Shown piece after piece: positions 4,501-30,074 of a DNA stretch of 64,000 nucleotides (the first letter of the stretch is position 1; each line of letters opens with the position of its first letter). Source of the DNA: Deltaproteobacteria bacterium HGW-Deltaproteobacteria-14 (GTDB lineage Bacteria > Myxococcota_A > UBA9042 > PHBI01). The stretch covers positions 11,972 through 75,971 of the forward strand of contig PHBI01000002.1 in NCBI GenBank assembly GCA_002841945.1. Reading direction: 5' to 3'. A program made the translations under genes and the position numbers. A model generated the notes under the pieces. That model made no database searches and had not been told where the DNA came from. It saw nothing but the letters and a program-made list of their open reading frames with translations.

Positions 4501-6960
4501 ATCGAGTGCGGTCAGATGCGTGTCCAGCGCGTGTTCCGTGAGCGCGACCGCGTCGGCCGCGATGGAGGCTTGTCCATCGGCGAGCTCGGCGAGGCGCAAA
4601 TGCAGTTCCCTCAGCTCTGCCGCGAGTTGCTGGAGCTCATCGTCGGATCTCTGTTGGTGACGTTCGAGTTCGCGGACGATGCTTGGAGAGAGATCGTCGG
4701 ATGTCGGAAGTAGGTCAGGACGATGAGAGGCAAGCCAGTCGTCGAGTTCGCCATCCGCGACGACGACCGGCGGCCCCAACAATCGAGCGGCGGCGCGAAC
4801 TGATTCGCTCACGCGTCGCGCATCGAGCTCCGGGGAGCTCGGAGTGAAGTCGGGCCACGCCTCAACCAGCAGCGGGCGGGCATAGACCGATCCTGCGGTG
4901 AAGACGGGCTCCACGATGTCATGGCGCTCGACGCCGAGGTGGCTGCGCACAAGTCCCACGATCCAGTTGTCGATTGGTGCACCACCCGTGGAGGAGCTGG
5001 CGGCGCCGACGGCGAGGTCACTGAATCGGGGTGCGTTGGCTGCACGCCGAGCCTCGGTCTTCGCACGCGCGTGGGCGTCGCGAGCCGTCAGAACAGCGGA
5101 CGCAAGTACCACCAGTTCTTCGACGCCCTTGTCCATATGGCGACGGTCTTTCAGCTTGGCTCCGCCACGGTCGAAGATCGCACTAGACTCCTCCCGTAGT
5201 CGCGCAAGGGTGCTTCTATCCGAGTCCTCGAGCCGAGATTCCGAGATACGCGACAACGTCGGCGCAGCGCCCCCCATGAAGTTGTCCCATGCACGCCGGC
5301 AGTGCGTGGTCTGCACGGTCCCTCCGGCAGCGCTGAAGAGTCTCTTCAGCGCTTCATGCAACGCGCCTGCGGCCTCGTGCTGTGCCGCCTCGAGCGCCGT
5401 GTCGGACAGGGGGGCAGCAAGCTGCCGCTCCAGAACCGCCGCCGCCGACGAGATCCTCTGGTGAACGAGCCACTCCTCAAGCAGCGCCCTGGTGCCCTCA
5501 TTGAGTCGGAGTTGCGTGCACAACTCCGAGATCGTCTCATCAGCGAGCGGGCAGGAGCTCGTGTCCAGGGCGAGCATTACAGCCGCCAGCCAGGTTCCTG
5601 GATAGGCCGGCTCGGCGGAGCCAGACGCGATGGCGACGCGGATACGGCGAACGAGATCTACCGGCAGCTCAGGGGAGGCGGACGGGCCACGGGCGAAGGC
5701 ACGCGTCCAGTCGAGCAACCAGGCCGGAGCGGCTTCGTCGAGTGCCAACTCGGCTGCGGCGGCACCCATGACATAGGCCGTGGCCCATTCCCCCGCTAGC
5801 AGGGCATGGGACTGGGCATCCACGATGGATTCGTTGAAGTCGTCCTTCGTCCACGGCGCCGGAGCGGCTGTGCCGTCCGGCTCGAGCCAGTAGTTGGCAA
5901 CGAAGTCCCTGCGTGGTGTCGCTTCGACCACCTTGCTCCCGACATCGAGTTGCAGCGGCGGACGGTCATCAGGCCGTTCGGGCGTCTGCTCGGTGCTCGG
6001 GGTTTCGTTCGCCGCAGAAACACCGACGTCCGCCGAGAGGTCGCCTGTGTCGGCTGGCCCAACGCCGGCTTGGTCTCCGTCACCCCTGACGAGCGCTTCG
6101 GGCTGGGACGCGAGGACCCTCGCAGGTTCGGCTGAGCCGCCCAGCGTGAAAGGTCGGGGCGGCTCAGCATCGGGACGGGGGAGCGTCGGCGTCAAGGTGT
6201 CAGGGGGCGCCCCCTCTGACGACGCGTCCTGGATGTTGACTTCGTCTTGAGTCGACGCCGCTGTTGTGTACCCGCCCTCATCTTCGGCAACGTCGGCGTC
6301 AGCTGGTTCGTCTGTTTCCGCTTCACCCGCCTTCGGGCCGGCGGCGGTCCACGCTGGCTCGTCGACAGTCGCCAGGAAATCGACAAGCGCTGGCATCGCA
6401 CCTCCGAGGCCGTCGATCACTCGCTCTTGGGTGCCGTTCTCCAGGGCCCAGAACCACCGGAGCCAAGATTCGCCGGGCCCGTCGGGGCCGTCGAAGCCCG
6501 TGGTGTTCGAGGCCCCCTCGGCCAGGATCCTCTCGAGCTCGGCTGCCGCCATCTCGCGTTGCTCCTCCCATCTCCGCGCGCGCCACCCACCCACGCATCG
6601 CCCACTGCGCAGCTCCGCAGCCAGAAGGCGAATGCGCCGCTCAGGGAGCTCGACCACCAACGCGTCGAGTGCCTCCAGGGCGTCCGTGACGCGGGCCCGC
6701 AGATCGTCCATGTCTACCGGCCAGACCTCGTCTGCGCGGCCGTCGTTGCTGAGCGTCTCGTGGGCGACGTGCAACGCGTCGCGCACGCGACGACCTGAGC
6801 GAAGGACGTCGTCGAGAGCCTGCTCGGCCACCGGCCGCGCGACGTCGGCCGCCCGCTCGAGCTCCGCCACAACAGCTCCGAGGCGTGTCACTCCGTCGAT
6901 GTGGCGGTCGATCGATTCCTTGAGGTGCTCACGCAGCTCAGCTGGTGACTGGGGGACCAT
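1594..6960 (-). CDS. 1788-aa STAND/AAA_16-like P-loop NTPase with ~1000-aa N-terminal extension (includes an acidic/Pro-rich low-complexity segment) and ~400-aa C-terminal region
   Basis: The FVGRQTEAEAL motif sits immediately before Walker A (SGRRLGKTALL), and Walker B is LLLLLDEAD. This is the hallmark of STAND/AAA_16 NTPases. The NTPase core lies at about aa 1040-1400. Residues ~150-400 are Ala/Pro/Glu/Asp/Thr-rich. Stop is 9 nt from the SNF2 gene start. Confidence 0.65.
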   Translation of the reverse strand: MVPQSPAELREHLKESIDRHIDGVTRLGAVVAELERAADVARPVAEQALDDVLRSGRRVRDALHVAHETLSNDGRADEVWPVDMDDLRARVTDALEALDALVVELPERRIRLLAAELRSGRCVGGWRARRWEEQREMAAAELERILAEGASNTTGFDGPDGPGESWLRWFWALENGTQERVIDGLGGAMPALVDFLATVDEPAWTAAGPKAGEAETDEPADADVAEDEGGYTTAASTQDEVNIQDASSEGAPPDTLTPTLPRPDAEPPRPFTLGGSAEPARVLASQPEALVRGDGDQAGVGPADTGDLSADVGVSAANETPSTEQTPERPDDRPPLQLDVGSKVVEATPRRDFVANYWLEPDGTAAPAPWTKDDFNESIVDAQSHALLAGEWATAYVMGAAAAELALDEAAPAWLLDWTRAFARGPSASPELPVDLVRRIRVAIASGSAEPAYPGTWLAAVMLALDTSSCPLADETISELCTQLRLNEGTRALLEEWLVHQRISSAAAVLERQLAAPLSDTALEAAQHEAAGALHEALKRLFSAAGGTVQTTHCRRAWDNFMGGAAPTLSRISESRLEDSDRSTLARLREESSAIFDRGGAKLKDRRHMDKGVEELVVLASAVLTARDAHARAKTEARRAANAPRFSDLAVGAASSSTGGAPIDNWIVGLVRSHLGVERHDIVEPVFTAGSVYARPLLVEAWPDFTPSSPELDARRVSESVRAAARLLGPPVVVADGELDDWLASHRPDLLPTSDDLSPSIVRELERHQQRSDDELQQLAAELRELHLRLAELADGQASIAADAVALTEHALDTHLTALDRAWLCHCRDKLRRRAGQLTDRLVAAALEEGLSQAEARRILASGDIGALLRALGQRPHSSGPRRYRATLYRRDAAKRWPDPLEALNRLIEPVQLDNDVKNVVSRWIDTTSKLRRRRLKDQDDAKLREAFVELVFKARALRRSSHVRNYTPRGDKTHYSQIDVESVQSWLVEGVNNPTFLPQISRYRTLSLKVSPLPSVSPALSRRIQSEATNQELTLILVPGLHEEQRRQIHDRLATASLAGPVALIDDLDLCRLLNVGGEAPDPLLALLELVAEQQRWSRFCPYEVVEGQHVRLEMFVGRQTEAEALATRATYSRIFSGRRLGKTALLRFVEGNPNLKTLPSGNNLRVVFCSIAGMETEQAVARAILSAVGELLDVKNGLDASDPVEHLKSTLPQRLAEHPDVSLLLLLDEADTFFAAQIESPTSERQQSLSWWMSRHAEEIRDQAGLPRIRFVFCGYLRTDQNRGVWENKGDVLLLGPLDADGAVELAAGPLARLGIDAREQADNIAFRCGYQPAVIIRFGLSLIEHLERTRPRQDREQVTVTAKDVVDVFLSNAVQNAIYEICWLNFVGHPRGKLIFAGLLMELQGRVPSAAIDDAPERILAHIQAVEGFDPTELGGEAWADLVRQELRGLVDRSLIVQTSHRPDEYRLRFPHHLPVLVQREPARHIRDALKRLRASGGTQQPTWLLSESVLESVRFCLSDLAVEADVRGAAVASHWLPPLVDADNGLARRLGLANGSDGTRVLTGKAAINALETLESRTEPVLLIGGSELARGAQRLQSRAGPIDLARTGRLSKGQVDSWLRRRRAAEFTALNPLDPIMRCTAGIPILVARFDELLATAHPEAPTLDAEALNGLVAALEASYGEIAAQLTTEGSELHLTLRERELIHMVARASEEFGDDLAAALRADIIEAGPRRFGPQDGDAIQVLLALGLLPRSPTRSGSPLDEVAPLRVDDPVLRIVPPSAG

Positions 6961-11004: not shown

Positions 11005-13089
11005 TCAGGCGGAGGCGGGCGCGGGGGCGCGGAGCAGGTCGGCGAGGAATGGAGATGGCTCGCCGGTCCACGTGACCGTGAGGTCGTCGCGGGCGCGGGT
11101 CATAGCGACGTAGAGGAGGCGGCGCTCGCGAGCGATGGCGTCGTCGCGGTCCTGGGGGTCGGGCATGAGGAGCGCGCGGCGTGTCGGGAGGCGGTCGGCG
11201 CCGACGCCGTGGACGATCACGGCCTTGAACTCGAGCCCCTTGGCGTTGTGCATGGTGGTCATGCGAACGCCGGGGCGGTCATCGCGGGCGGGCTCGTTGG
11301 GGTCGAGGCGGCACACGTCGTGACCGGCGGCGAGGAGCGCGCTCTGAAGGGCGTTGAGCTCGGCGTGGGTGTGGGCGAATACCCCGATCTCTTCCTCGCT
11401 CGCGTGACCCGCGGCCAAGATGCGTGAGACGGTCTGGCAGGCGACGCGACGTTCCTCGGCGACGTTCGACGCGGGGACGAGGGACGGGTCGGGGCCGGTC
11501 ATGACGCTGCGGGTGCCGTGGCGGTCCTCGGTGCCCTCTTCGAAGTCGTCGACGGTGTGGCCGAGGACCTGCTCGGCGGCGCGGCGGATCTGATGGGTCG
11601 TCCGGTAGTTCACGCGGAGGACGCGGGAGCGGCCGCGGGTCTCGACGCCGAGGCGGACGAGGGAGAAGCCGCCTGGGTAGATGCGCTGGCCGGCGTCGCC
11701 GACGAGCATCAGGTGGCCCGGGTGCGCGGTGGTGAGAGCGACGAGGAGGCGGATGTCGGGGACCGAGAGGTCCTGGACCTCGTCGACGATGACGGCGGTG
11801 TAAGGGGAGTGCTGACCGGTAGCGAGCGCCTCGGCGGCGGCGGTGCTGAGCGTCGGGAAGGTGTATTCGTTGGCGACGCGCATCGCGGCGAGGAAGATGC
11901 TGAAGACCTGCCACAGCGCCTTTCGCTGAGCGGCGCCGAGGCCGGTGCCGCGGCCGATGCGGCGGGCGCTGCGGTACTCGGGCCAGGTGGTGATGCCCTG
12001 GGGCATGATGACGTGGTCGAGCTCGGCCTCGATGAAGTCGAAGGGCCACGGCACGGCGGGGGCGTCGGCGATGGCGCGGTGGAGGCGGGAGCGGACCTCT
12101 GCGTTCGTCGTGAGCAGGGTCGGCCGGCGCGATCCGGCGGCGTCGACGATGTCGTAGGCGATGGCCTTGACGGTGCGGACGACGATGCGCTCGCGGGTCG
12201 TGGCGTCACAGAGGAGGTCGAGGAGGCGTTCGACGCTTCGGCAGAGGGCCTTGGTGAACGACGTCAGGAGCACGCGCTCGCCCGTCTGGGCGAGGTAGTG
12301 GGCACGGTGTACTGCGACGATGGTCTTGCCGGTGCCGGCGCTGCCGCTGACCTTGGAAGGGCCGGAGAAGTCGCGGGCGACCATGTCGCGCTGGTCGGGG
12401 TGGAGGAAGGTGATCCAGGTTTCGAGCGGCGCGGCGAGGGCACGCGCGAGGGCGTCGGCGTCCTCGGGGGCGTAGAAGCGCCGCGAGAGGTCGGGCGCGG
12501 CGGTAACCGGCTGATCCGGGGCGATGGGGGTCGGAGGGACGACCAGATCGCCGAGGCCGAGATTGAAAAGGCGCTCGCTGACGTCGGGGGCGAGCGTGGG
12601 GTCGCAGCAGAGGGTGGCGAGATCGTCTTCGGACCTGACCTCGCGAGCGAGGGGCAGCCACTCGGGCGGGAGACCGAGAGACAGGAGGTAGTCGTCCGAG
12701 TGGGCCGCAAAGCGAGGCGGGTCCTGGGTGACCGTGCGGGTGATGACGCGTTCGCGGACGCGCTCGACCTCTTGGATGTCGACGATCTCGAAGGTGCCGG
12801 TCTGGACGTTGCGGCCGGTGCGGCGGCGCTCGGCCCAGCGGTAGGCGTCATCGTGGTGGTCGACGTGGAGTAGGAGCCAGTGGTCACCGTCCCGGTAGAG
12901 GATGGCGCGGAGATCCTGACTGATTCGGGCCGACCAGACGCCGTCGCCGTGGGGGTTCTGGACGCGGTGGAGCTGAATCCCCGGGTGGGCCGGGTTCTCC
13001 TGGAAACGGGCGATGAAGGCGTTGGCCTGTGCCTGCTCAGTGGCGGCGAGGGTGGCGAGTTGGGCGAAGAGGTCGCGTGAGAGGAGCAT
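11005..13089 (-). CDS. UvrD/PcrA-like SF1 helicase (694 aa) with RelE/ParE-toxin-like N-terminal domain
   Basis: Walker A GSAGTGKT and Walker B VIVDEVQDL. The N-terminal ~90 aa (ENPAHPGIQLHRV...VWSARISQDLRAILYRDGDHWLLLHVDHHDDAY) fits the RelE/ParE pattern (...YRiiYri.d..v.il.v.hR.d.Y). Confidence 0.8.
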   Translation of the reverse strand: MLLSRDLFAQLATLAATEQAQANAFIARFQENPAHPGIQLHRVQNPHGDGVWSARISQDLRAILYRDGDHWLLLHVDHHDDAYRWAERRRTGRNVQTGTFEIVDIQEVERVRERVITRTVTQDPPRFAAHSDDYLLSLGLPPEWLPLAREVRSEDDLATLCCDPTLAPDVSERLFNLGLGDLVVPPTPIAPDQPVTAAPDLSRRFYAPEDADALARALAAPLETWITFLHPDQRDMVARDFSGPSKVSGSAGTGKTIVAVHRAHYLAQTGERVLLTSFTKALCRSVERLLDLLCDATTRERIVVRTVKAIAYDIVDAAGSRRPTLLTTNAEVRSRLHRAIADAPAVPWPFDFIEAELDHVIMPQGITTWPEYRSARRIGRGTGLGAAQRKALWQVFSIFLAAMRVANEYTFPTLSTAAAEALATGQHSPYTAVIVDEVQDLSVPDIRLLVALTTAHPGHLMLVGDAGQRIYPGGFSLVRLGVETRGRSRVLRVNYRTTHQIRRAAEQVLGHTVDDFEEGTEDRHGTRSVMTGPDPSLVPASNVAEERRVACQTVSRILAAGHASEEEIGVFAHTHAELNALQSALLAAGHDVCRLDPNEPARDDRPGVRMTTMHNAKGLEFKAVIVHGVGADRLPTRRALLMPDPQDRDDAIARERRLLYVAMTRARDDLTVTWTGEPSPFLADLLRAPAPASA

Positions 13090-13491: not shown

Positions 13492-16400
13492 TCAGGGCCG
13501 AGACGTCAACTTCCGGATGTGGCGAGCCAGGTGCTTCTCGTAGAGGTCGGCCCGCACTTCGAAGCGGCAGACAGGACAGCGACCGAACCCGCCGGCGCTC
13601 GAGCTTCGGTCGAGCGGGTGGGAGGCGACGATGTGGCGCGCGAGCTGGGCCGTTCCCATTGGGGCGTTGCAGATAGGACACCCGGGGCCCACCGACCGCT
13701 TTGGGGTTGGCGCCCTGCCCTTCTTTGCGTGGCTCTTGGCCGGCGCCGCCGCTTTGACTGTGGGCGCGCGGGCGGGCAGTGCTGATGGCGTGGGGACCGA
13801 CGTTGTTGACTTCGGGGAAGGGATGCTCTCGAGCGGCGCGCCGTCGCCATCGGGCGGGCGGTCGGACTCGGCGACCAGGAGGCAACGATCGATGTCTTGG
13901 ATGATGCGCGTGAGCCTCGCGCCCTCGGTATTCGCGTCCGAACCTTTGCCGGACACCCAGAGCACCGAGCGCGCCCTGGTCATCGCGACATAGAGGTTCG
14001 TGGCGAGGATGCCGCCGGCTTTGTGCACGAACCCGTCGGCGCAGGCGACAGCGACAATCTCGGCGTCGTGCCCTTTGAAGGAGTGGGGTGTCGAGACCAC
14101 GATGGTGTCATCGCTCGAGGTCAGCTGTTCACTGGCCTGGGCGATGATCTTGGCGCCCGCGCGCTTCACCACGGGAGTAAGGGTGGCCTCGATCTTGCCG
14201 CAGTGGGAGAGCCTGTTGGCGATGATCCGTATGTCGCGCGGGCGGACACCCTCGTTGCGAATCCACTTCTCGATCTGCTGGCCGAGCGTCTCCAGCTCGG
14301 CATCCCGGGAACCGAACAGCTCGACCTGAGGCCGAGGCCCGTCGACGTGGCAGAACCTGACCCGCCACCACGGACGCTTGCCGGCGTGACCCTCTACGAC
14401 GAGGCCACGCTCGAGCAGCTCGCGATGGTCCGGGTCTTCACGCGGTGGGAGAAGCCGGTACAGCAGATTGAGCGCAAACTCGGTGATGGGCCGCGTCGAA
14501 CGAAAGCTTTCCTTCATGACCGTGGAGCGGCCTCGCATGTCGATCCCGAGGTCTGACCACTGGGGCGTCCCGCGTCCGTAGATGTTCTGGGCGTTGTCGA
14601 AGAAGATCACCGCTTGCCGCCGGTTGCTAGCCGAGTCGACCGGCTTCACGAGTTGGTGGAGCAAGCGGAGCGTCTCAGGGCCCATGTCTTGGCCTTCGTC
14701 GACGAACACGGCGTCGCACAAGGGCTTTGGTCTGCCGACGTTCGTGAGGTAGCGGGCCGCCTGGGTGTTGTAGTCGAAGGGATCACCCCGATAGTAGACC
14801 CCCGCGGCCTGCATCAAGAGCCCAAGAAGCTCCTTGATGTGAAAGTACGAGACTTGCTTCGTGGCTGGGTCGAGGCCACGCACCCGCAGGGCGTCGCTGA
14901 CCATGCCGTCGAGCAGGCCCTTCAGGGCTGCGTTTCCGTACACGATCCACAGCGCGCCACGCGGCTTCTCTTCGAGCGTCCGCGCGACCCAGGATGCCAT
15001 GACGACCGTCTTCCCGCTGCCCGCGACGCCGCGCACGAGGCGCGGGCCGCCGTCCATCCTCATGTTGCAGAGGCGCTCCTGCTCCGCGCTCAACAGCCTC
15101 AGCATGGAGCCCCGGTCGTCGAGCTGGGCGCCGAGCGTGGTGGGGTCCGACGCGCGGACCTTGGCCGAGGGTTCGTGGGCGACTTTGGCGGGCACGGCCT
15201 CCCAACGCGTTCGAGGGCCGCGGCCGCGGAGAACGCGCGGAGCGATGTGGTCGACGAGGGAAGCGAGGAATGGTTGCTGCATCTCGTCGCGACTCGCGAT
15301 GAGAAGCACGACCTGCTTGGCGCGGCTCAAGCCGACATTGACGAGTCGCATCCACTCGTGCGTGGGCCACGCCGTGCTCGACGCGTGCACCGTGTCGAAG
15401 ATCACGTAGTCGGCCTCGGCACCTTGCTGAGCATGGATCGTTGACGCCCGCCAGTGGTCGCGGGCGACGGGGTGGTTCGCCAGCCACTGACGGATCTCGC
15501 GCCCCTGGGCGACGAACGGCGACACGAAGAGCCCCGGTCCGCGCGCGAGCTTCGGGTGCGCGTCGAACACTTGGCGGAGCACATCGATGGTCATCGGCCG
15601 GTGCCAACTGCCGCCGCGTTCGGGGCGCTGCGCGCGGAAGGCGGCCGGGGACGATGCCTCTTCGTCGAGGACGTACCACAAGGCCCGAGGCTGCGACTTC
15701 AAGAGAGGATCGAGGTCGGCGCCGGCGGCGACCGCTGGGATCGGTGGGGCGTCCTCGAGCCGGCCGTCGTACTGGTAGTTGGACACGAGTTCGCGGATCT
15801 GAGGCGCCATACGCCACTGCGCGGTGAGCATCACCGTCGACGATGTGAGCGTCGTGGGCGTGAGGTGTGCGAGACTGCTCTCTCCAAGCCACCGCATCCT
15901 GCGCGGTACTTCGACGCGCGCCACGCGAGAGATCGGCGCGAGTTGTCGGGGGTCCCCGACAAGGATGACGCGGGTGCCCGCGTGGAGGGCGAGCGCTGCC
16001 GTGGCAGCTCTCGAGACCAACCCAGCCTCGTCGATGATAACCGTCGAGAAAGGCGGCGGGCCCCCCATCACCGGAGACTGTTCAGCGTCGGCGAGGATCT
16101 GTACTGCCTTGAAAGCGGTCGCAATGACGACCTGGTGTCCGGGATCGAAGAGCGCCAGGTCGGCTTCCCGGAGCTGCTTGCGTAGCGCCTCGATTTCTCG
16201 CTTGATCGCGGCGCGCTCCTCTGGTCGCGTTACGCGGTCCAACTCACGGCGCTTCGCGTTCAGCTCGGCGCGGATTGCGGTTTCGCCGCCGTCGAGGAGC
16301 TCCGTCGCGTCCGCGGCGCGGTAGCGCGTGAGGTCGGCACCGGCGCCAATCCGAAGGACCCTCGTGAGATCCGCCTTCTGTGACCTGCGACGCATCGCGC

Positions 16401-17103
16401 CAACGATACTCAGAGCGGCGCCATCGGTAGCCTTGTTCGTCGTGGAGACGACCAGAATGCGCTCGCCGGACCGCGCGGAGGCAGCCGCGACGAGCTCCCC
16501 GAGGCTGTGGGTCTTGCCGGTCCCGGGCGGACCCCAGAGCACGGTCCAGCGGTGCCCCCAAAGCGGCTCGAGCGCAGGCACTCCGAGACGCGATGCTGGA
16601 ACTGAGACAGCCGGGACCGTGCCAGCCGAGAGGCCGAGCGCCGCCCCGATGAGCCCCGCAGGTCCCCGTCCGGCCTGCTGATAGACCTCATGGAGGAACC
16701 GCGTGAACTCGAACGGCTTGACGATGAAGTCGCCGGGCGTCGGCGCGCCCGAACCGTCCTTGAGACCGATGAAGATGTCCCCAGCGTCGGCATCGATTTC
16801 ATAGACCGTCCCGCTCCATGCGTACCGGGACGCCTCGAAGGAGCCGGGACCGGCGATGTCATCGAAGTCCAAGGGGCGAAACGCGAAGCCCCCCTCCCAA
16901 CTCGAGTCGAGCTCGACGCGCCCGACGTGGACGCGGACGATGCTCTGGTCGGTCACGAGCGGGCGATCCACGCGGTGAGCGGCGATTCGAAGGCTCCGGC
17001 TACATACCCGATGTTCCGCGGCGACCGCGTCGCGTGCCTCGGCGAACCAAGTCGGACCAGCTTCGTGTCGGTGCGATGGTCTCCGGCTCGTCGACATCGC
17101 CAT
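13492..17103 (-). CDS. 1203-aa tandem SF1 helicase: Upf1/DNA2-like (AAA_11/AAA_12) core followed by UvrD-like core, with two C-terminal C2H2-like zinc fingers
   Basis: First core: GPPGTGKTH ... VIIDEAGLV ... VILVGDPRQLAPI. Second core: GVAGSGKTVV ... VFVDEGQDMG. C-terminus: CPICNAPMGTAQLARHIVASH and CPVCRFEVRADLYEKHLARH (C-x2-C-x11-H-x3/5-H). Confidence 0.8.
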   Translation of the reverse strand: MAMSTSRRPSHRHEAGPTWFAEARDAVAAEHRVCSRSLRIAAHRVDRPLVTDQSIVRVHVGRVELDSSWEGGFAFRPLDFDDIAGPGSFEASRYAWSGTVYEIDADAGDIFIGLKDGSGAPTPGDFIVKPFEFTRFLHEVYQQAGRGPAGLIGAALGLSAGTVPAVSVPASRLGVPALEPLWGHRWTVLWGPPGTGKTHSLGELVAAASARSGERILVVSTTNKATDGAALSIVGAMRRRSQKADLTRVLRIGAGADLTRYRAADATELLDGGETAIRAELNAKRRELDRVTRPEERAAIKREIEALRKQLREADLALFDPGHQVVIATAFKAVQILADAEQSPVMGGPPPFSTVIIDEAGLVSRAATAALALHAGTRVILVGDPRQLAPISRVARVEVPRRMRWLGESSLAHLTPTTLTSSTVMLTAQWRMAPQIRELVSNYQYDGRLEDAPPIPAVAAGADLDPLLKSQPRALWYVLDEEASSPAAFRAQRPERGGSWHRPMTIDVLRQVFDAHPKLARGPGLFVSPFVAQGREIRQWLANHPVARDHWRASTIHAQQGAEADYVIFDTVHASSTAWPTHEWMRLVNVGLSRAKQVVLLIASRDEMQQPFLASLVDHIAPRVLRGRGPRTRWEAVPAKVAHEPSAKVRASDPTTLGAQLDDRGSMLRLLSAEQERLCNMRMDGGPRLVRGVAGSGKTVVMASWVARTLEEKPRGALWIVYGNAALKGLLDGMVSDALRVRGLDPATKQVSYFHIKELLGLLMQAAGVYYRGDPFDYNTQAARYLTNVGRPKPLCDAVFVDEGQDMGPETLRLLHQLVKPVDSASNRRQAVIFFDNAQNIYGRGTPQWSDLGIDMRGRSTVMKESFRSTRPITEFALNLLYRLLPPREDPDHRELLERGLVVEGHAGKRPWWRVRFCHVDGPRPQVELFGSRDAELETLGQQIEKWIRNEGVRPRDIRIIANRLSHCGKIEATLTPVVKRAGAKIIAQASEQLTSSDDTIVVSTPHSFKGHDAEIVAVACADGFVHKAGGILATNLYVAMTRARSVLWVSGKGSDANTEGARLTRIIQDIDRCLLVAESDRPPDGDGAPLESIPSPKSTTSVPTPSALPARAPTVKAAAPAKSHAKKGRAPTPKRSVGPGCPICNAPMGTAQLARHIVASHPLDRSSSAGGFGRCPVCRFEVRADLYEKHLARHIRKLTSRP

Positions 17104-18034: not shown

Positions 18035-20731
18035 GTGAGTGAAAGCAACCCAAGCGAAGCCACCATCCCAACCGCGGCAGCGCTTCGCCAACCCAGCATG
18101 ACCGGCACAGCGGCCGCGATGATAATCATCATCGTGCTGGTCGGCGTGGTGACCTTCGCATCAGGTCATTCGCTCATCGCGTCGCTTGTTGACGCGATGT
18201 CGAGCCCCGTGACGTGGGTGGTCTTCGCACTCGTGGTTTCGCTCGCGCTGGTGGGCGGGCACCTGCGAGGCCGGGGCCACCTTGCCGCGAAAGGAGTCGT
18301 GACGACCGCGAGGAGGATCGCCCGGCAACACGAACCAGCGGACGCGGACAGAGGGATCCCTCCTATCAAGCTCGATTCATTCGAGAGTGAGATCACCGAG
18401 CCGTATCTCATCGGGGTCTGGAAGGAATTCCGACGGAGTCTCGTGGACCGCGATGGGCGCTACTTCAAGGTCATGGACGCGAGCCGCTTCTTCGAAGACG
18501 ACGGGCTCGCGAGCGCCATCAAAGGGAGCGTGTGGCGGGCCGAGCCCAGCTACTCCTTCATCCACGAGTTGCCGGGCTTCATGGTCGGCCTCGGAATGCT
18601 CGGGACCTTCATTGGTATCGCCGTTGGGCTCGGACAACTCCAAGGGGTTGCGCAGGACGGCCAAGGCTTAGCCGTCGAGGGAGTGCAGAAGATCGCGCAG
18701 CACAGCACAGCCATCGTCGACAAGATTCCAAGCGTGATCGCTGGACTCGCGTCGGCGTTTTGGACGAGCATAATCGGCCTCATCGGGGCATCCCTGATGA
18801 CGTGGTTCAACCACAAGTCGGATAGTGCCCTGGGCAGCGCAATGGCGCTCTTTCGCCTCGAGCTCGACCGGTGCATCCCGCGGTCGAGCCAAGAGTTCTT
18901 CCTACGTCAGCAGACCTCGGCTCTACGAGAGATCAAGGACCTCCACGAGCAGGCGAATGACTTTCTTGGCGAAATGACGAACGATCTCGCAGACGAGATC
19001 GCGCGCGGCACTGGTGAGGTCATCGTCGGGCAGCTCTCCCCGATCCTGCACGGCATCGAGCGGGCCGTCAGAGAACAGATCGAGAACGCGGCTGTGCGCT
19101 CCGAGGACATGCTCCTTGCGCTCGTCGAGGAGCTGAAGGACAAGTTCGTAGCCGGATTGGACAACAGCGTCACCAAGATGGCGGCCCAGAACGAGCAGAT
19201 GACGAGCGCGTTCTCAGCGGTGACGCGCGACCTCGAGACGCACGTCGCAGGTGCGGTCTCCACATTCAGAGAGGGGATCGAGGGCGCCGGCGAGCACATG
19301 AACAAGGTGTTCGGCGAGACCTCGGACGCGTTCGCGGCAAAGCTCGGAGACGCGTCGACGGCGGTCGCCGAGTCACTCGGGGACAGCTCCAAGGCTCTCG
19401 CCAGCACGCTTGGCGTGGCGTCGAGCTCGTTGGCGTCATCGCTGGGCGACACATCTACCGCGTTCGCGAAGACGCTCGGCGAGTCCTCGAACGCCGTTGC
19501 GAACACGCTCGGGACGGCGTCGAGCTCGCTCGCTTCCTCGCTCGGGGACACCTCCAGGGCCTTCGCCAACACGCTCGGCGAATCCTCGAGCGCCGTTGCG
19601 AGCTCACTCGGGACGGCGTCGAAAGCATTGGCATCCTCACTCGAGAGTACGTCGAGCGCCTTCTCCGACAAGCTCAGCGAGGCTTCCGCCAATGTCGCAA
19701 CGTCGCTCGCGAGCGCTGCGACGAGCATGGCAGAGACCCTCGATGGTACAGTTGCCCGCGTCCGCGATGGGGTCTCCGACCTCGGAAGCCAGATGACTGA
19801 CGCGCTCACCGAGGCGACGACGGCAATGCGTCGGGGAATCGAAGGCGCACTGACGCCCCTCGAAGCCACCCTGCATACGCTCTCCGACGTCGTTGGCGCG
19901 CTTGGCGAGCAAGCGAGGATCCACGTCGACCTCCTCGAGCGCCACCAAACCACGGCTACGACCATGGGCGAGGCCGCGGAGAGGATAGCGCCCGCCCTCG
20001 AGTCCATCGTCGGTAGCCACCGCGAGTTGGCGTCGACGGTCCGCTCCCTCGAGCTGTTGTTCGACGAGCTCAGGACCACGCGAGACGCGCTCGCGGTCGT
20101 ACCCGGGGAGATTCGCGCTGGCCTCGGCGCCGCGACCGCGGAGCTGGCTGGAGCCGCGAACTCGCTGGCACCTGTGGCGGCCCAACTCGAGCGCTGGGGC
20201 GCGACCGTAGGCGAGTCACTCGAGGCACTCGAGAAGCAGGCCCAACTCCAACGCGAACAGCTCGAACAGCAGCGCGCAGCGACGAGGGAGCTCGGAGTTG
20301 TCGTCACGTCGTTCACGCCTGCGCTGAAGCAGGTCATTGGCTTCACGCAACAGCTCGAGGAGGTCGTCACGAGTATGGACGACGGGCTGGCCGAGCTCGC
20401 CGCCACACGCGGGACTCTCGAGAAGACGAACCTCGCGATCACGACCGGCCTCCGAACAGCGAGCGCGAACCTCAACGCCACAGCCGCTGGCCTCGGCCCT
20501 CTGACGGTGCAGATGCAGCGTTGGGCTGAAGCCAGCGGGAAGTCCCTCGAGGTGTTCGGCGCTACCATGCATGCGCACCTGCGCGATGCGCTGTCCGCGT
20601 TCGATGGCGCGCTGAGCGAGTCGGTTCGAGGGTTGGCGGAGGCCGGGGAGGAACTCATCGGAGTCGCCGACCGGATCAGCTTGCGGGTCGAGAGCATCGA
20701 GCGTTCAAACCCGCCACCGCGAGCCGCATAG
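18035..20731 (+). CDS. zorA: ZorA (MotA/TolQ/ExbB-like proton-channel subunit with ~600-aa repetitive tail), type I Zorya
   Basis: N-terminal TM helices. MotA/ExbB channel signature LPGFMVGLGMLGTFIGIAVGL. Long C-terminal tail of 11-residue repeats (SLGDTSxAFAxTLGESSxAVA...). Followed by a MotB-like gene. Confidence 0.8.
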   Translation: MSESNPSEATIPTAAALRQPSMTGTAAAMIIIIVLVGVVTFASGHSLIASLVDAMSSPVTWVVFALVVSLALVGGHLRGRGHLAAKGVVTTARRIARQHEPADADRGIPPIKLDSFESEITEPYLIGVWKEFRRSLVDRDGRYFKVMDASRFFEDDGLASAIKGSVWRAEPSYSFIHELPGFMVGLGMLGTFIGIAVGLGQLQGVAQDGQGLAVEGVQKIAQHSTAIVDKIPSVIAGLASAFWTSIIGLIGASLMTWFNHKSDSALGSAMALFRLELDRCIPRSSQEFFLRQQTSALREIKDLHEQANDFLGEMTNDLADEIARGTGEVIVGQLSPILHGIERAVREQIENAAVRSEDMLLALVEELKDKFVAGLDNSVTKMAAQNEQMTSAFSAVTRDLETHVAGAVSTFREGIEGAGEHMNKVFGETSDAFAAKLGDASTAVAESLGDSSKALASTLGVASSSLASSLGDTSTAFAKTLGESSNAVANTLGTASSSLASSLGDTSRAFANTLGESSSAVASSLGTASKALASSLESTSSAFSDKLSEASANVATSLASAATSMAETLDGTVARVRDGVSDLGSQMTDALTEATTAMRRGIEGALTPLEATLHTLSDVVGALGEQARIHVDLLERHQTTATTMGEAAERIAPALESIVGSHRELASTVRSLELLFDELRTTRDALAVVPGEIRAGLGAATAELAGAANSLAPVAAQLERWGATVGESLEALEKQAQLQREQLEQQRAATRELGVVVTSFTPALKQVIGFTQQLEEVVTSMDDGLAELAATRGTLEKTNLAITTGLRTASANLNATAAGLGPLTVQMQRWAEASGKSLEVFGATMHAHLRDALSAFDGALSESVRGLAEAGEELIGVADRISLRVESIERSNPPPRAA

Positions 20732-20742
20732 CGAGGACGTGA

Positions 20743-21882
20743 ATGGGACGCCGGAGAGGTCAGCCCCTGTGGCAGAGCTACGCCGACCTGGCGATGGGGC
20801 TCATGGCGGTGTTCGTTCTGATTCTGGTCATTCTCCTGTGGGACCAGAACAGGCTCACGACCGACTTAGCTCAATCGAAGGAGCGGGCCGAGCAGGCACT
20901 CGAGGATGCGATGAAGCAACGGCAGCTCACGGAAGAGGCGCTTGAGTCCGTGACTCTCGAGAGGGCCGCGCTCGAGTCCGAGCGAGGGACCTTCGCCATT
21001 GAGCTGATGGAGCTGTTCGAAACGACGTACGACCTCGTACTCGCTCAGGATAACGCAGAGAACTGGCTCACTGCGGTCTTCGAGGAGGGCGACTGCCGGT
21101 TACGTATGACTGAGCGAGGTGAGCTGGTCATCGCGACGCCGGACGGCGGACGGGCTGCGGCCAGTCTGTACGAGTCGGGGCAGTTCGTCCTCAGCGTTGA
21201 GGGTCGTCAGGCGCTGCTCACGTGTCGGGACAATTTCCTGAAGCTCGCGCACTGTCTCACCCCCGAGGACAACGTCCCCGAGGCGGTGAGTGAGAGGCGC
21301 AAGCGGCTGTGCCCCGGTGTTGGGGTCCACAGCCTCGACATGGCTGTCCCGGTCTTGCGGGCGGGGATCGAGGCGCTCGTCCTGGAAGGAAACACCGACC
21401 AGATCCCGCTCGGAGGCGGTACCCCGAGCATCCGGGCCGGCGGCTACGGGGTGACTTACCCCACACCCGTGGCGCTGAGCTTCGTCGAGAACGCCTACCT
21501 TGGTGCGGAGCGGGCTCGGCAGGCGCTCGGGAACCTCATCGCGTTGGTCGCAGACGCGAATGAGGACCAGTGGGACGCGCTCGAGGTGATGATGAGCCGC
21601 GTCCGGATCGAGAGTCCGAGTTTCGGCCGCTTCCAGGCCGGTCCCCAAGAATGGCGGGAAGCAGGATGCGAGGGACCCGGGAGTTGCGCGGCGGCGCGGA
21701 ACCTGGCGCTCCGCGTACGGTGGCAGAAGCGTGCCCTCCGCCGGCCGTTCGAGCTCGTCCGTGAGCGGATCTGCGGGTTGCTCGTGACGCCCGACTCCTC
21801 GTTCGCAAAGGGACTCCTGAGCCAAGGACACACCCTCTTAGCCGAGCGCGAGCGCTTCGGCTGCCCGGAGACCGTCCCGTGA
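20743..21882 (+). CDS. zorB: ZorB (MotB-like stator subunit with single TM and periplasmic domain)
   Basis: N-terminal YADLAMGLMAVFVLILVILL has a conserved Asp at the MotB-like TM start. Gene sits 11 nt after zorA. Size 379 aa. Confidence 0.7.
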   Translation: MGRRRGQPLWQSYADLAMGLMAVFVLILVILLWDQNRLTTDLAQSKERAEQALEDAMKQRQLTEEALESVTLERAALESERGTFAIELMELFETTYDLVLAQDNAENWLTAVFEEGDCRLRMTERGELVIATPDGGRAAASLYESGQFVLSVEGRQALLTCRDNFLKLAHCLTPEDNVPEAVSERRKRLCPGVGVHSLDMAVPVLRAGIEALVLEGNTDQIPLGGGTPSIRAGGYGVTYPTPVALSFVENAYLGAERARQALGNLIALVADANEDQWDALEVMMSRVRIESPSFGRFQAGPQEWREAGCEGPGSCAAARNLALRVRWQKRALRRPFELVRERICGLLVTPDSSFAKGLLSQGHTLLAERERFGCPETVP

Positions 21883-23120
21883 CATCGTTGCCACCCATCC
21901 CGACGCTCGCGACGTTCTCGCTACCTCGGCCCGTCGGACTGCGGCGCCTGAACCAGCGTGTTTTCCGGGGAGCCGGCGTGAAACCGCGGCCGTCGCAGCT
22001 CGAGCAGGCGCGCAAGCTGCTTGCCAGCGCGAAAGCAGGCGCACAGGTCGAGGTGACGTCGTCGGTGCTGTGCCGATGTCTCGTGTACATCCTCGGGGAA
22101 CGCCCAGACGACACGGAGCGTGACCTCATCGGGAGGCTCGTTCTCGGTTCACCACACGCGCGAGCCCGAGAACTGCTCGCGCTGTGGGAGAACGTGCCAT
22201 CGCGGCGCGCCGCGATCGCTGTGGCGCTCTCGTCGGCGCTCGACGCTCGCTCACGCCCTTTTGTGATGCCCGACTGGTTGCCCCGCACCGAACCCGAACG
22301 GCGCAGAGCCCTGGTAGCCCCGCATGCGTTCTGCCTTCGAGGGCTCGAGCGTAATCTTGGTTCCATCGACACCGTCGGGGACAGACTCGGCGTCGTCCTG
22401 CACAGCAGACTCGGCCATGAGCTCCTATTGCACGCGTTGGTGCACGGCTCTGACCGGTTCTGGGGGGCCCTTGGGTCCCCACTTGAGCTGCGAGAATGGG
22501 CTCGCCCCCGCGACACCCGAACCCAAGCGGCCATTGCGGACCGCCAACTCGTCGCCATTGGGCGCGGCGTAACCGCACCATACAACCTCCCGGATGACGC
22601 CGAGACCAAGCACCTGACCGAATGGGTCTTCTCGACGCTCCGATCGCCGGACACTCACGCTGCGCGCTGGGACGGCGTGTCCGATCGGGGGCGTGAGGTC
22701 TTCGACTGGCTGCTCATCCGAGATGAGATTGTCAAGATTCTCGCGCTCTTTGAGCAGCAGGCGACGCAGTCGGACCGGGGGGAGTTCTGGAAGAAGCAAG
22801 CGCACCGGATCCGCGACGCACGCTTCGTGGACCTTGATGAGATGGCGGTCTGTCTGATCGTGATTGGGGAGACCCTGGTCGTCGAGTTCGGAGACTACGC
22901 CAACGCGGGGTACGTGTACGGAGTGCCCGCGCATTCACCGTCGGTGAGGCGGCCAGCGAACCTTCCAAATAGGGCGGGGAGCTTCAAGCAGCGTGGATAT
23001 CACCTGAAAATCGGAGCGGTCGTGTACCCGTTCAAGGACCGGATCATCCACGCGGGGGACTGGCAGACGCGGACCGGACAGGCCATCGCACAGTGGGCGG
23101 CAGGGTGGAGCCGGCGGTAG
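21879..23120 (+). CDS. zorC: ZorC candidate (413 aa), by position between zorB and zorD
   Basis: Start overlaps the zorB stop (ATGA). No motif recognised by eye. Assignment is by synteny of type I Zorya (zorABCD). Confidence 0.45.
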   Translation: MTSLPPIPTLATFSLPRPVGLRRLNQRVFRGAGVKPRPSQLEQARKLLASAKAGAQVEVTSSVLCRCLVYILGERPDDTERDLIGRLVLGSPHARARELLALWENVPSRRAAIAVALSSALDARSRPFVMPDWLPRTEPERRRALVAPHAFCLRGLERNLGSIDTVGDRLGVVLHSRLGHELLLHALVHGSDRFWGALGSPLELREWARPRDTRTQAAIADRQLVAIGRGVTAPYNLPDDAETKHLTEWVFSTLRSPDTHAARWDGVSDRGREVFDWLLIRDEIVKILALFEQQATQSDRGEFWKKQAHRIRDARFVDLDEMAVCLIVIGETLVVEFGDYANAGYVYGVPAHSPSVRRPANLPNRAGSFKQRGYHLKIGAVVYPFKDRIIHAGDWQTRTGQAIAQWAAGWSRR

Positions 23121-23133
23121 TTGGCTGCTGAAG

Positions 23134-26100
23134 GTGGAGGATTGCGTGAGTTCCTACGACCAGCGTGGCGTACACCTTGAACTTTCAGGGGTGCCGCTCT
23201 CCACAGTGGCAACCGCGGCGCTGCGTGACGAGGGCTTCATTCCGTGGCGCGTCGCTCTCTCCGTGCTCGACGAAGCGTGCGACCTGAACGAGGTTTCGGC
23301 CCGGCTTTCGGCGCTCGACGGGACGTTCTCCGAGGAAGACCGCTCCGCGCTCGAGGCGCCTCTGGCCCAGCTCATGCCTCCCACAGTGCCCATGACCCTG
23401 TCGGTAGCCGTTCGTGGGGTGGCAGGACGGACTCGCTACGCGCTCTTAGGCGAGTGGGTAGGCCGGGATGGCTACCGAGTTGACCCGCCACCCGAGCGGC
23501 TGTCACCGGGGATCGTCCGGTGGCGGGAGTCCGACTGGCGCATTACCGCATCACAACTGGAGGTACTCGACTCGCTCGACGGCGTCGAGGGGCTGGGAGC
23601 AAATCGAAGCACCGACCTGGCGCACACCGAGCGGGTGACGTCGGCGGTGCTCGGCGGCGATGCCTCGGTAACACTCGGGCCAGGCTTGCGGTCTAGTCGG
23701 TTCGTTCGCGTCGACGCTGTGGCACCGATGTTTGCCCAGGCCGCACCAGGACGATATCGCATGATGCCAACGGTCGAGGGCATCACAAACGAGACGCTGT
23801 GGGGACAACTGCGGCGGAGCCGCGGGGCCGAGCAGGTGGTGTCGTACCGAGACCCAGATGGCGTCGCAACGAGAGTCGTCTTCACGAGTCGCGCGCAGGC
23901 CGCGATTGCAGATGTCCGCCGCGAAGCCGCACAGATGCTCACGCCACGTCGGGTCGCGCAGATCATGACGCGGCCACAAGACATCCTCGGAGAGAACCTC
24001 GACCTCTCCGGCTTGTCGGAGCGGGTGACGGGCTTCGGCCCGGTGGTGCTCGACGTGAGCTTCGAACCAGGCGAACTCGGCGGACGGGACTGGTGGGACT
24101 TCGACACAACTCTCGTGCTCGACGATGGAGTCGACACGTCGCTCGCCCTCGATCTGAGGGACGAGAACGTCGTACGCACCCTGGAGACCGCTATCGCTGC
24201 GGCGGACGCCGACGGCTCGGCCTTTATCCCGTGCCCCAACCGGGACGCGCTCATGCCGCTGACTGCGCTCCTACGCCAGGCAGTGGCCACGGCACGCGAA
24301 CGCCTGGATGGACTCAAGCCGGAACGGGCGGAGCCACAAGGTTTTCAGATCATCTACAACATCGAGGAGCTCGAGTTCGAGCAGTCGGAGGTAACGCCGG
24401 GCGGAACACCTCCGAGGAAGCCGCGGGGGCTGGCGCCAGGGTTCGAACTCCACGACCACCAGTTGGTCGGATTCTCATGGTTGCATGCGCTCGCGACGGC
24501 GCCAGGGGGCTCGCGGGGGGCGTTGCTCGCCGACGACATGGGGCTCGGGAAGACGCTTCAGGTCCTCGCGCTGCTCTCGGACATGCTCGAAGGGGGGCGT
24601 CCCGGCCCCCATCTGGTCGTTGGACCAGTCGCCGTTCTGACCAACTGGATGAGGGAGGCACGGCGGTTCTTCCAGGAACGACTGCCGTGCCTGCAAATCC
24701 AAGGTCAGTTCCTGCGCGGTGCGTCGCCGGCGATGTCCGCATCCGCACTGCAAACCCAGCGCGTCGTCGTCGCGAGCTACGAGACCCTACGCGTCAACGA
24801 GATCGCGTTCGCGAAGGTGAAGTGGGACACCGTCATCCTGGACGAAGCCCAGAAGGCGAAGAACCCAACGACCCAGATCGCTCGCGTCTTGAGGACGCTT
24901 CAAGCGCGCTTCCGGCTCGCCGTGACGGGTACCCCTGTCGAGAACAGCCTACGAGACCTGTGGACTCTGTACGACTGGGCTGTACCCGGTCTGCTTGGGC
25001 CACTCCGACAATTCCGTACCCGCTTCATGAAACCACTCGGCGACGGCGCGGATAGCGTGCAGCGCCGGGTACTCGCCGACGAGCTAACGAGCACGATCAA
25101 GCCGGTCTTCATGCGACGGCTCAAAGAAGACGCGCTCCAGGGGCTACCACCGATCCACCGGCACGACCACGTCGTCCCGCTCTCGCATGAGCAGGAACTC
25201 ATGTACGCCGCCGTCATCCGGTCGGTAGTTGACGGACGCGAGAAGCCCCTGGGGAGCCTCCCGCGGTTGTTCGGGATGTGCGCGCATCCAGACCTGACTC
25301 CGTGGTTCGACGACCTCCGTGCGCTTGCGGCGAGTTCTTTCCCAAAGGGTCAGAAGCTCTTCGAGCTCCTGGATGACGTCGCGGCGCGCGGCGAAAAGGC
25401 GCTTGTCTTCGCGAACCGGAAGGCCGTCCAACGTTGGATCGCGGACGAAGTCGCTCGCCGATACCAGGTTGCACGGCCTTTCGTTATCAATGGTTGCCTC
25501 GATGACTCGGCCGAGCGGTTGAGGCTCGTCGACTTGTTCCAGAGCCGCCCGGGCTTCGGGTGCATCGTCTTGGCTCCGCGTGCGGCCGGCGTTGGCCTCA
25601 ACATCACGGCGGCAAACCACGTCATCCACTACATGCGCGAGTGGAACCCCGCGGTCGAGAACCAGGCGACGGACCGCTGCTACCGCATTGGGCAGGTCCG
25701 CCCAGTCCATGTGCACACGATAACCGCACGTTCGCCGCGCGGCGTGACGGTCGAGGAGCGACTCGCGGAGCTACTCGAGGCCAAGCGCCGGCTGTTCGCC
25801 GACTTCATCGTGCCGCTTGGCGATGTTGAGGTCGCCCAAAGCGACCTGGTCAACACGGAGGGCTGGGACGAGACGACGGTGGACGGCGACGCAGATCTGT
25901 TCACCGACGCGATGTGGCCAGTTTTACGCTCGGTGCTCGAAGCCGACGCATCGATGCGCGCTGAGCCGCCCTGCGAACACCTCGATGGAGGCCGCGTGAT
26001 CGGGCTCGACGACGGGACCCTGTTCGCAGGCACGAAGGTGGTCCGGCTCGTCGATGGGACCCGCAGGGACGCGGACCGCCTCGAAGCGGCGCTCCGCAAG

Positions 26101-29204: not shown

Positions 29205-29258
29205 GTCCTGTCCGACTTTTAATCCGATGGTCGGGGGTTCGAGTCCCCCGCGACCCAA
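29205..29258 (+). other. tRNA/tmRNA 3'-end-like fragment (T-arm GGGGG-TTCGAGT-CCCCC + acceptor 3' strand GCGACCCA) without a matching 5' half; putative att-site remnant
   Basis: ggtcgggggttcgagtcccccgcgaccca. No complementary 5' acceptor strand and no valid anticodon stem upstream. Confidence 0.5.
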
Positions 29259-29363
29259 CGACTTCTCCGCTCGCCCGGCGGTCCTCCCCCCCCGCCCGTC
29301 GGCGCCCCGCGCTCTCGCGTGCCTTAGCTTGTCCGGGGGCGCGGCCGCTGGTACCGTCGCGAA

Positions 29364-29776: not shown

Positions 29777-30074
29777 CGCGCTGGCTTCCGCACCCACGCA
29801 TCGCGGTCGCGCTCGAGCAGATCGGCGCTCGAGTTGATCCAGATTGTGGCTCACGACGACACCATCAGGCGCTTGGTCAGCTCGTCGAGAAGTCGGATGC
29901 CGAGGCTCCCGTTGACTCTCGCTGGGCGTCGCCCAGTGCGGCGAACGCCCGGAGATCTTGCTATCTTGGTCCTCTCTCACGGCACCGACAGCTTGCTGTA
30001 CGCGCCCGCCTGGTAAAGAATCCGTTCCTAGTCCCGCGGCTTAGGAACGGGGCCGTTACCACGCGGAGGACCCC

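Follow-up and report, generated by a model that had tools for sequence, protein, structure and literature searches.

Can one bacterial polypeptide hold two working helicase motors of different descent, and what would such a protein be for? The question is raised by a gene in a stretch of 64,000 nucleotides from Deltaproteobacteria bacterium HGW-Deltaproteobacteria-14 (contig PHBI01000002.1, positions 11,972 to 75,971), referred to here as the window, whose product we call the tandem helicase. An earlier reading of the letters alone (the sequence-only reading) had proposed that this protein joins two complete superfamily 1 (SF1) helicase cores of different lineages to two zinc fingers, and that it might follow a logic like that of RecBCD. 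The two cores were found to be complete, of different lineages and conserved across homologues within one polypeptide, whereas the assignment of the second core to the canonical SF1A enzymes had to be qualified, and neither the RecBCD logic in the form proposed nor conservation of the fingers was supported. The sequence strings that had been quoted (WGPPGTGKTHS, RVILVGDPRQLAPIS, GVAGSGKTVV and VFVDEGQDMG) all occur in the open reading frame (ORF), which was divided as follows, with the basis of each assignment given last.

13492..17103, minus strand: tandem helicase gene, 1203 aa plus stop (stop codon 13492-13494); ORF list and translation
16549..17103, minus strand: residues 1-185, N-terminal domain modelled as a helix, a beta-barrel and stalk helices (putative 1B and stalk as in Upf1-like helicases); AlphaFold2 (AF2), Foldseek and conservation
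15229..16548, minus strand: residues 186-625, core 1, SF1B motor of Upf1/Dna2/MkoA type; Pfam, PADLOC and PDB sequence matches, motifs
16510-16533, minus strand: residues 191-198, core 1 P-loop GPPGTGKT; sequence
15097..15228, minus strand: residues 626-669, inter-core segment leading into the Q motif of core 2; conservation profile and P-loop spacing
13939..15096, minus strand: residues 670-1055, core 2, read as a compact UvrD-lineage SF1 motor of SLFN / NERD-helicase type; AF2, Foldseek, PADLOC, BLASTP and motifs
15007-15030, minus strand: residues 692-699, core 2 P-loop GVAGSGKT; sequence
13684..13878, minus strand: residues 1076-1140, low-complexity basic linker; composition
13618..13680, minus strand: residues 1142-1162, C2H2 finger 1, CPIC-x11-H-x4-H, CPICNAPMGTAQLARHIVASH; sequence and zf-Di19
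13519..13578, minus strand: residues 1176-1195, C2H2 finger 2, CPVC-x11-H-x3-H, CPVCRFEVRADLYEKHLARH; sequence, zf-Di19 and zf-C2H2_4

A conserved family with two cores in one chain

At E<=1e-10, a search of an index of 5.8 billion proteins gave 292 homologues. The top 120 are without exception full length (990-1364 aa, 74-96% of the query covered, 40-52% identity), confirming that the ORF is a real gene and no chance ORF of high-GC DNA. We then pooled family members and related proteins from two independent searches. Both P-loop signatures are present in 162 of the resulting 261 proteins, separated by 482-545 residues (median 499), a near-constant spacing that excludes an assembly or frameshift artefact and suggests that selection maintains a fixed arrangement of two motors. 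A sequencing, assembly or frameshift fusion was accordingly rejected, the same fusion recurring in over 160 independent sequences. With core 2 as its only query, an exhaustive HMMER scan of 1.84 billion representatives yielded 192 at E<=1e-30. The tandem family accounts for roughly the first hundred, and the next class consists of stand-alone proteins of ~680 aa with 34-38% identity, which match the Pfam models UvrD-helicase, UvrD_C and SLFN-g3_helicase as well as the whole PADLOC model C3a187 ('NERD+UvrD').

No model in Pfam, NCBIfam (June 2026) or PADLOC describes the whole protein, and a full-text literature search found no description of the two-core architecture; judged by these comparisons, the tandem family is conserved, widespread and so far undescribed. 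Stand-alone core 1 and core 2 genes lying side by side (Rosetta-stone pairs) were absent from 60 loci. The genome scan contained at least two tandem loci among the matches listed (L010 and L038). The second of these, L038 10001-13195 from a Syntrophorhabdaceae metagenome-assembled genome, encodes a distant two-core relative with 24% identity. A phage origin of the family was rejected, as no tandem relatives were found among IMG/VR viral contigs.

Several family members carry additional domains. In P0175 (1854 aa) an N-terminal STAND NTPase precedes the whole tandem module, and other members have N-terminal DnaJ or C-terminal FGE-sulfatase domains. Two further proteins have related layouts: P0259 (2055 aa) has a STAND NTPase ahead of a core-2-like domain, and P0238 (967 aa) has a Ser/Thr kinase (PD-T4-6-like) ahead of a NERD+UvrD-like helicase.

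The ORF opens with an ATG at 17103, a few bases 3' of a Shine-Dalgarno-like AAAGGA site. A Joint Genome Institute (JGI) metagenome contig of 101,897 bp encodes the same protein (P0001, 100% identity) with a start called 44 aa further downstream. We rejected the JGI start because it truncates a conserved N-terminal helix, in which A23, A26 and E30 are near-invariant in the homologue conservation profile; we accordingly prefer the ATG at 17103.

Core 1 is an Upf1/Dna2-type motor

The first core had been called Upf1/Dna2-like, and this was borne out. Core 1 passes the Pfam models AAA_11 (80.6 bits, 2e-22) and AAA_12 (94.7 bits, 7e-27; cut-off 27 each), and its motifs I-VI are present and conserved in homologues with an Upf1-type signature (GPPGTGKT, DEA, VGDxxQLxP, QYRM, QGxE and NVAxTRA). 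Over residues 188-610 it matches the helicase region of MkoA in PADLOC (E 1.5e-40), and among PDB sequences it matches the solved IGHMBP2, Upf1/Nam7, Sen1 and Dna2. A conserved helix, ASRxEMxxPFLxxLxxxLxPRVL (residues 602-625), closes the core just before the inter-core segment.

Residues 1-185 have no match in the Pfam scan. The AF2 model of residues 1-195 has a pLDDT of 81.5 and consists of a helix, a beta-barrel and stalk helices. Its top Foldseek matches in the PDB, which are only marginal (E 8e-4, TMq 0.37), are Upf1, IGHMBP2, Dna2 and Sen1, and the predicted fold fits the 1B-barrel-plus-stalk that marks Upf1-like helicases. Residues conserved in this domain among homologues include W69-E70-G71, W96 and P130-F131-x-F133. 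Taken together, residues 1-625 make up a complete unit of Upf1/Dna2/MkoA type, in which RecA domains 1A and 2A are joined to the putative 1B barrel and stalk.

Core 2 appears to be a compact motor of UvrD lineage

Core 2 carries the motifs LSAEQ (Q), GVAGSGKT (I), IVYGNAAL (Ia), DEGQD (II, in VDEGQD), FFDNAQNIYGRG (III, including DNAQNIYGRG), ESFRSTRPI (IV), STPHSFKGHDAE (V, including TPHSFKGHDAE) and LYVAMTRARS (VI), which are of UvrD-like types (DExQD, D-x-x-Q-x-IY, (N/S)(Y/F)RS, HxxKG and YVxxTRA). The sequence-only reading had allowed for a second half lacking motifs III-VI; all four are present and conserved. The residues of both cores that serve catalysis or contact nucleic acid show little or no variation in alignments of 51 and 120 homologues. 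We rejected the view of core 2 as an inactive duplicate, because all of its SF1 motifs are intact and near-invariant in these 51-120 homologues.

The AF2 model of residues 640-1075 (pLDDT 92.6, pTM 0.89) contains short inserts only. In a Foldseek comparison with the PDB, the helicase domains of human SLFN11 and SLFN14 ranked first (E 4.5e-14, TMq 0.57, root-mean-square deviation ~5 Å), followed by a group comprising PcrA, UvrD, Rep and UvrD1 (TMq 0.54-0.62) and a lower group comprising Upf1, RecD2, RecD and Dna2 (TMq 0.42-0.49); HelD bound to RNA polymerase (6zca) was matched as well. Core 2 has a length of ~390 aa, compared with ~640 aa in UvrD, and is modelled without the large 1B/2B inserts. 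The SLFN11/14 helicase domain is without 1B/2B and showed no unwinding in vitro (PMC9482658, PMC12135189).

Sequence comparisons place core 2 closest to C3a187 NERD+UvrD in PADLOC (E 3.6e-27), and BLASTP aligns its motifs II-IV with those of a 694-aa UvrD-like protein encoded next to the tandem helicase (27% identity, E 5e-7). Pfam gives a mixed result for the isolated core, with 31.9 bits for AAA_12 (cut-off 27), 26.1 for UvrD-helicase (cut-off 23, P-loop region only) and 17.6 for UvrD_C, which is below its cut-off of 25.6; the homologue P0003 clears both the UvrD-helicase and UvrD_C models. Matches to PDB sequences by phmmer are weak, the best (E 0.004) lying in the motif V-VI region of an Upf1-like protein, which is too little to classify core 2.

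The UvrD-like character that had been assigned to this core is supported by its conserved signature motifs, but the core is not a canonical SF1A enzyme of the UvrD/Rep/PcrA kind, being compact, without 1B/2B and closest in fold to SLFN11/14. In our reading it would be a stripped-down core of UvrD lineage and of SLFN / NERD-helicase type. Given this departure from canonical SF1A enzymes, the match to an SLFN11/14 domain that does not unwind and the mixed Pfam result, a 3'-5' polarity of core 2 can be presumed from its lineage only, and strand separation cannot be assumed.

These properties also bear on whether the protein has only one working motor, with the other core serving as a regulatory or clamping pseudo-helicase as in Brr2, AddB, the vestigial helicase of TraI and SLFN11. 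Such an arrangement would agree with the SLFN11/14 domain, the best fold match of core 2, having shown neither ATPase activity nor unwinding in vitro (PMC9482658, PMC12135189), and tandem helicases with one inactive cassette are the common precedent (bioRxiv 10.1101/758698). In both cores, however, the residues of Walker A, Walker B and motifs Q, III, V and VI are invariant, unlike those of degenerate cassettes, and we consider a single working motor very improbable. With their ATP sites and motifs conserved and their spacing fixed, both motors are apparently active.

The C-terminal module is swappable

The linker that follows core 2 is rich in Pro (20%), Ala (17%), Ser (12%) and Lys (9%), has an isoelectric point of 10.3 and is unalignable to most homologues. 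Behind it lie the two C2H2-like fingers that the sequence-only reading had recognised. The counts given there were off by one: the spacings are C-x2-C-x11-H-x4-H in finger 1, with x4 in place of x5, and C-x2-C-x11-H-x3-H in finger 2. The isolated tail passes zf-Di19 in Pfam (29.7 bits, cut-off 27.5), and finger 2 also matches zf-C2H2_4; in the scan of the whole protein zf-Di19 reaches 22.3 bits, below the cut-off.

Conservation of the Cys/His positions in orthologues failed to appear, as fingers occur in only two of the 261 proteins, the query and its closest homologue P0002 (52% identity). P0002 has three fingers, two of them at the query positions, with CPVCSFNVKQTKYLEHLARH where the query has finger 2, and its tail scores 33.6 bits against zf-Di19; within this pair all eight zinc ligands are conserved. 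In most relatives the place of the fingers is taken by another conserved C-terminal domain, of ~125 aa (residues 1080-1203 in P0003, for example; consensus GxEHRxWL...QEP..GEIxAEPLFWF..ACFG..LED.G), for which there is no Pfam match. The 76-aa finger tail, used as a query against the 5.8-billion-protein index, gave no matches.

From these alignments the fingers are a real, lineage-specific C-terminal swap, and since they are confined to the query and P0002 they are no part of the core mechanism. The C-terminal ~130 residues of the family are, on the same comparison, a swappable module, represented here by the basic linker and a Di19-type C2H2 pair, which together are most simply read as a predicted nucleic-acid-docking module.

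Genomic contexts of the family

We compared the neighbourhoods of family members in 13 distinct contexts, the window included. No neighbour gene is conserved across the 13, and seven are defence or mobile islands. Besides the window, these contain type III-B CRISPR-Cas; a type III restriction-modification (RM) system with GmrSD and RhuM; an OLD-like ATPase-TOPRIM protein with recombinases; SNF2, Abi_2, methyltransferase and Res genes with an integrase; SNF2, an AAA_13 ATPase, methyltransferase and Res with ArdC and an integrase; and ABC-3C with a PLD-like gene, ArdC and a resolvase. A small XRE helix-turn-helix (HTH) gene recurs near the tandem helicase in three Planctomycete loci (55-67% identity between loci) and lies directly upstream of it in L072 and L074:

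L010, 5759-14381: region with XRE HTH gene
L072, 7653-7991: XRE HTH gene
L074, 7650-7982: XRE HTH gene

It is the sole recurrent gene; the PLD-like, ABC-3C and other neighbours in L010 and L004 do not recur from one locus to another. The HTH gene and the tandem helicase of L010 are separated by an inserted ABC-3C pair (a CTD7 protein and a DUF3732 ATPase), and the PLD-like gene of that locus begins 2 bp beyond the helicase stop, which recalls the Mokosh arrangement.

The contexts speak to the idea that the tandem helicase is a subunit of a multi-gene system together with its window neighbours, namely the 694-aa UvrD-like protein, DrmD and proteins of 1788 and 417 aa. These genes share a strand, the 694-aa gene starts only 402 bp downstream, and SNF2 helicases occur near homologues in L010, L072 and L073. 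Yet those SNF2 proteins are divergently oriented and share only ~30% identity with DrmD, no DrmD orthologue occurs in the homologue contexts, and the 402-bp gap contains a promoter-like site (13428-13400). Elsewhere in the family the 694-aa gene is not conserved as a neighbour, and beside the gene of P0002 none of the four window neighbours is found. Taken with the lack of any neighbour conserved across contexts, this makes a multi-gene system with these partners scarcely credible.

A candidate stand-alone defence helicase

Taken as a whole, we give an even chance to the reading that the tandem helicase is a stand-alone dual-motor defence helicase, the most likely of the functions considered. 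Both of its halves are nearest to defence-linked helicases in PADLOC, core 1 to MkoA and core 2 to C3a187 NERD+UvrD, which we count in favour of a defence role. On this proposal the protein, which has no conserved partner gene, would work by itself and serve innate immunity as a helicase directed at the nucleic acid of phages or plasmids. Docking on nucleic acid would be the task of the C-terminal module. Upf1-type motors move 5'-3' in all characterised members and characterised SF1A enzymes 3'-5'; core 1 would then be presumed to run 5'-3', and core 2, from its UvrD lineage, 3'-5'. The two motors might engage both strands of an end or fork, or one RNA and one DNA strand, and their coupling could lead to processive unwinding or protein stripping, by which invader replication would be blocked or the invader exposed to host nucleases.

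Several observations weigh against a defence helicase. Six of the 13 contexts are without defence genes and contain, for example, uvrB/hrpB, flagellar or metabolic genes, and the argument from islands is one of guilt by association in a small sample (13 contexts). The Pfam, NCBIfam and PADLOC scans found no nuclease or other effector domain in the tandem helicase, and no anti-phage model of PADLOC or NCBIfam spans the whole protein. Polarity, DNA or RNA substrate and unwinding are predictions only, and the nearest solved fold, that of SLFN11/14, lacks unwinding in vitro (PMC9482658, PMC12135189).

The same contexts could be those of a housekeeping genome-maintenance helicase of lineages such as Planctomycetota, Chloroflexota and Myxococcota, an end or fork motor like RecBCD, AddAB or AdnAB that works with host nucleases and whose location in islands is incidental. 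Some half of the contexts have no defence character, one copy lying between uvrB and hrpB, and the family is kept at 40-50% identity across several phyla; moreover, the pairing of an SF1B motor with one of SF1A lineage is the RecBCD recipe. Set against this are the missing nuclease, both as a domain and as a conserved neighbour, and the recurrence of the family on integrative or mobile islands beside RM, CRISPR, ABC-3C and ArdC genes. The STAND-NTPase fusions, the swappable C-terminal module and the recurrent XRE regulator nearby also fit a housekeeping role poorly, as does the position of the window copy in a low-GC island (64-70% GC; the housekeeping flank past ~45 kb has 72-75%). We regard the housekeeping role as rather unlikely, though deserving to be kept in mind.

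A second question is the nature of the strands. Core 1 might travel on RNA and core 2 on DNA, giving a dual-substrate machine that would act, like Sen1 or HelD, on R-loops, transcription complexes or replication-primer hybrids instead of the two strands of a duplex. A role in defence would be consistent with this. Among solved structures, core 1 is most closely related to the RNA or RNA/DNA helicases IGHMBP2, Upf1/Nam7 and Sen1; MkoA (PADLOC PDLC03920) is annotated as the RNA helicase of Mokosh; and core 2 matches HelD on RNA polymerase (6zca, Foldseek). Dna2, however, is an equally good match for core 1, Upf1-like enzymes often act on DNA, no sequence feature separates RNA from DNA, and the Pfam scan found neither an RNase nor an RNA-binding domain. 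We hold a division of labour between RNA and DNA to be distinctly unlikely.

Within the stand-alone defence reading, opposite polarity of the motors and RecBCD-like action are plausible from the lineages of the two cores. We consider unlikely the bolder version, in which a single-polypeptide bipolar SF1 motor with RecBCD-like geometry and rigidly linked engines would track both strands of an invader DNA end or fork, or its RNA and DNA, and confer nuclease-free, stand-alone immunity; its swappable C-terminal targeting modules would be the C2H2 fingers in the window protein, with STAND NTPase control in some relatives. If true, no such motor in one chain would have been known before. No well-known machine other than RecBCD pairs the two polarities, and helicases of opposite polarity are known to cooperate only as separate subunits, as they do there.

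A conserved family in which one chain combines two SF1 motors of different kinds, both apparently active (at least 160 distinct sequences, 192 core 2 representatives at E<=1e-30), would offer a simple and experimentally tractable single-protein model for the handling of nucleic acid by coupled motors. The enrichment in defence islands, the STAND NTPase fusions and the kinship of the two halves with MkoA and NERD-UvrD make the gene a credible anti-phage candidate, and the structural kinship of core 2 with Schlafen proteins may be another bacterial link to animal antiviral proteins.

Comparison with known helicase systems

Of the known systems the tandem helicase works most like RecBCD, which also combines an SF1B-type motor and a UvrD-lineage SF1 motor in one machine. 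RecBCD has three subunits, with a nuclease domain in RecB, Chi recognition in RecC and a RecD-type SF1B motor, whereas the tandem helicase is one polypeptide with an Upf1-type SF1B motor and a compact core 2 without 1B/2B. Neither the protein, in the Pfam, NCBIfam and PADLOC scans, nor any conserved neighbour supplies a nuclease, and in the form given by the sequence-only reading the RecBCD-like logic could not be upheld.

Mokosh, reportedly described by Millman and colleagues in 2022, shares with the tandem helicase the MkoA-type helicase region (E 1.5e-40 to core 1). It needs the PLD nuclease MkoB (type I) or a fused PLD (type II), and no PLD is present in the tandem helicase or its window neighbours, a PLD-like neighbour being found in L010 only; the tandem helicase in turn has an extra second core and no kinase-like N-terminus. 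The eukaryotic helicases Upf1, IGHMBP2, Sen1 and Dna2 are similar to it in the sequence of core 1 and perhaps, going by the marginal structural matches, in the N-terminal barrel and stalk. ZNFX1 likewise combines an Upf1-like core with zinc fingers.

Among stand-alone proteins, core 2 is most closely related to the NERD+UvrD candidate defence helicases (PADLOC C3a187; DRT-associated NERD-Hel), at the 34-38% identity given above, and the tandem helicase has a complete Upf1-like helicase in place of their N-terminal NERD region. Group III Schlafen proteins (SLFN11, SLFN14) also have a compact UvrD-related core without 1B/2B, in an antiviral protein. Their sequence identity to core 2 is 11-15%, and they have an N-terminal RNase of their own and partly degenerate or occluded ATP sites, whereas the motifs of core 2 are intact. 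Two helicase cassettes in one chain are known from TraI (two RecD-like), HELZ2 (two Upf1-like) and Brr2/ASCC3 (two Ski2-like). In those proteins the cassettes belong to one subfamily and one is often inactive, in contrast to the two SF1 lineages, both apparently active, of the tandem helicase. As to DISARM, the window encodes DrmD, and none of DrmA, DrmB or DrmC was seen in it; the tandem helicase is not a conserved component of DISARM.

The defence island of the window

Pfam, NCBIfam and PADLOC scans place the tandem helicase in a defence island of ~44 kb. The island runs from the 417-aa and 1788-aa proteins through DrmD, the UvrD-like gene, the tandem helicase, Zorya, GmrSD and type I RM to an Hhe-like protein, beyond which housekeeping genes follow:

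344-1597, minus strand: 417-aa protein, no Pfam, NCBIfam or PADLOC match
1594-6960, minus strand: 1788-aa protein, no Pfam, NCBIfam or PADLOC match
11005-13089, minus strand: UvrD-like helicase, 694 aa, passes Pfam UvrD-helicase and UvrD_C
18035-26181, plus strand: Zorya operon, type I-like and divergent to the tandem helicase (ZorA, ZorB, weak ZorC, ZorD)
26400-28352: GmrSD
28668-29801 and 29961-31310: two genes without matches
31455-37067: type I RM, hsdS/hsdM/hsdR
38623-44709: Hhe-like protein, 2028 aa, with DUF4011, AAA_11/12, MTES_1575 nuclease and DUF3320

DrmD scores 625.9 bits in NCBIfam (cut-off 610). The 1788-aa and 417-aa genes lie directly downstream of it; the former begins 10 bp after DrmD and overlaps the latter by 4 bp. 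It occupies the place expected for the DISARM methyltransferase (DrmMI), and no methylase domain was detected in it; the two genes may form an undescribed DrmD-associated system. The 694-aa UvrD-like protein, on the same strand as the tandem helicase, has an N-terminal extension of ~230 aa without assignment, and its best matches are PADLOC C3a187 (NERD+UvrD), GajB and helicase IV.

In the Zorya operon, ZorA (898 aa) is unusually long, with an apolipoprotein-like coiled-coil tail, and ZorB is long as well (379 aa). A 413-aa gene has only a faint ZorC 'EH signature' match, and ZorD scores 345 bits against an NCBIfam equivalog cut-off of 1500 and also matches the SCO1167/SCO6262 helicase model. 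In the housekeeping flank, a gene for a glycogen-debranching enzyme reaches at most 70% identity to named sequences, which are from Gemmatimonadota and 'Deltaproteobacteria' metagenome-assembled genomes, marking the host as an uncultured high-GC bacterium. The ORF of this enzyme (49627-52335, minus strand) has 902 aa, compared with ~626-690 aa in homologues and in the JGI call, and its true start probably lies ~230-275 codons downstream of the first in-frame start.

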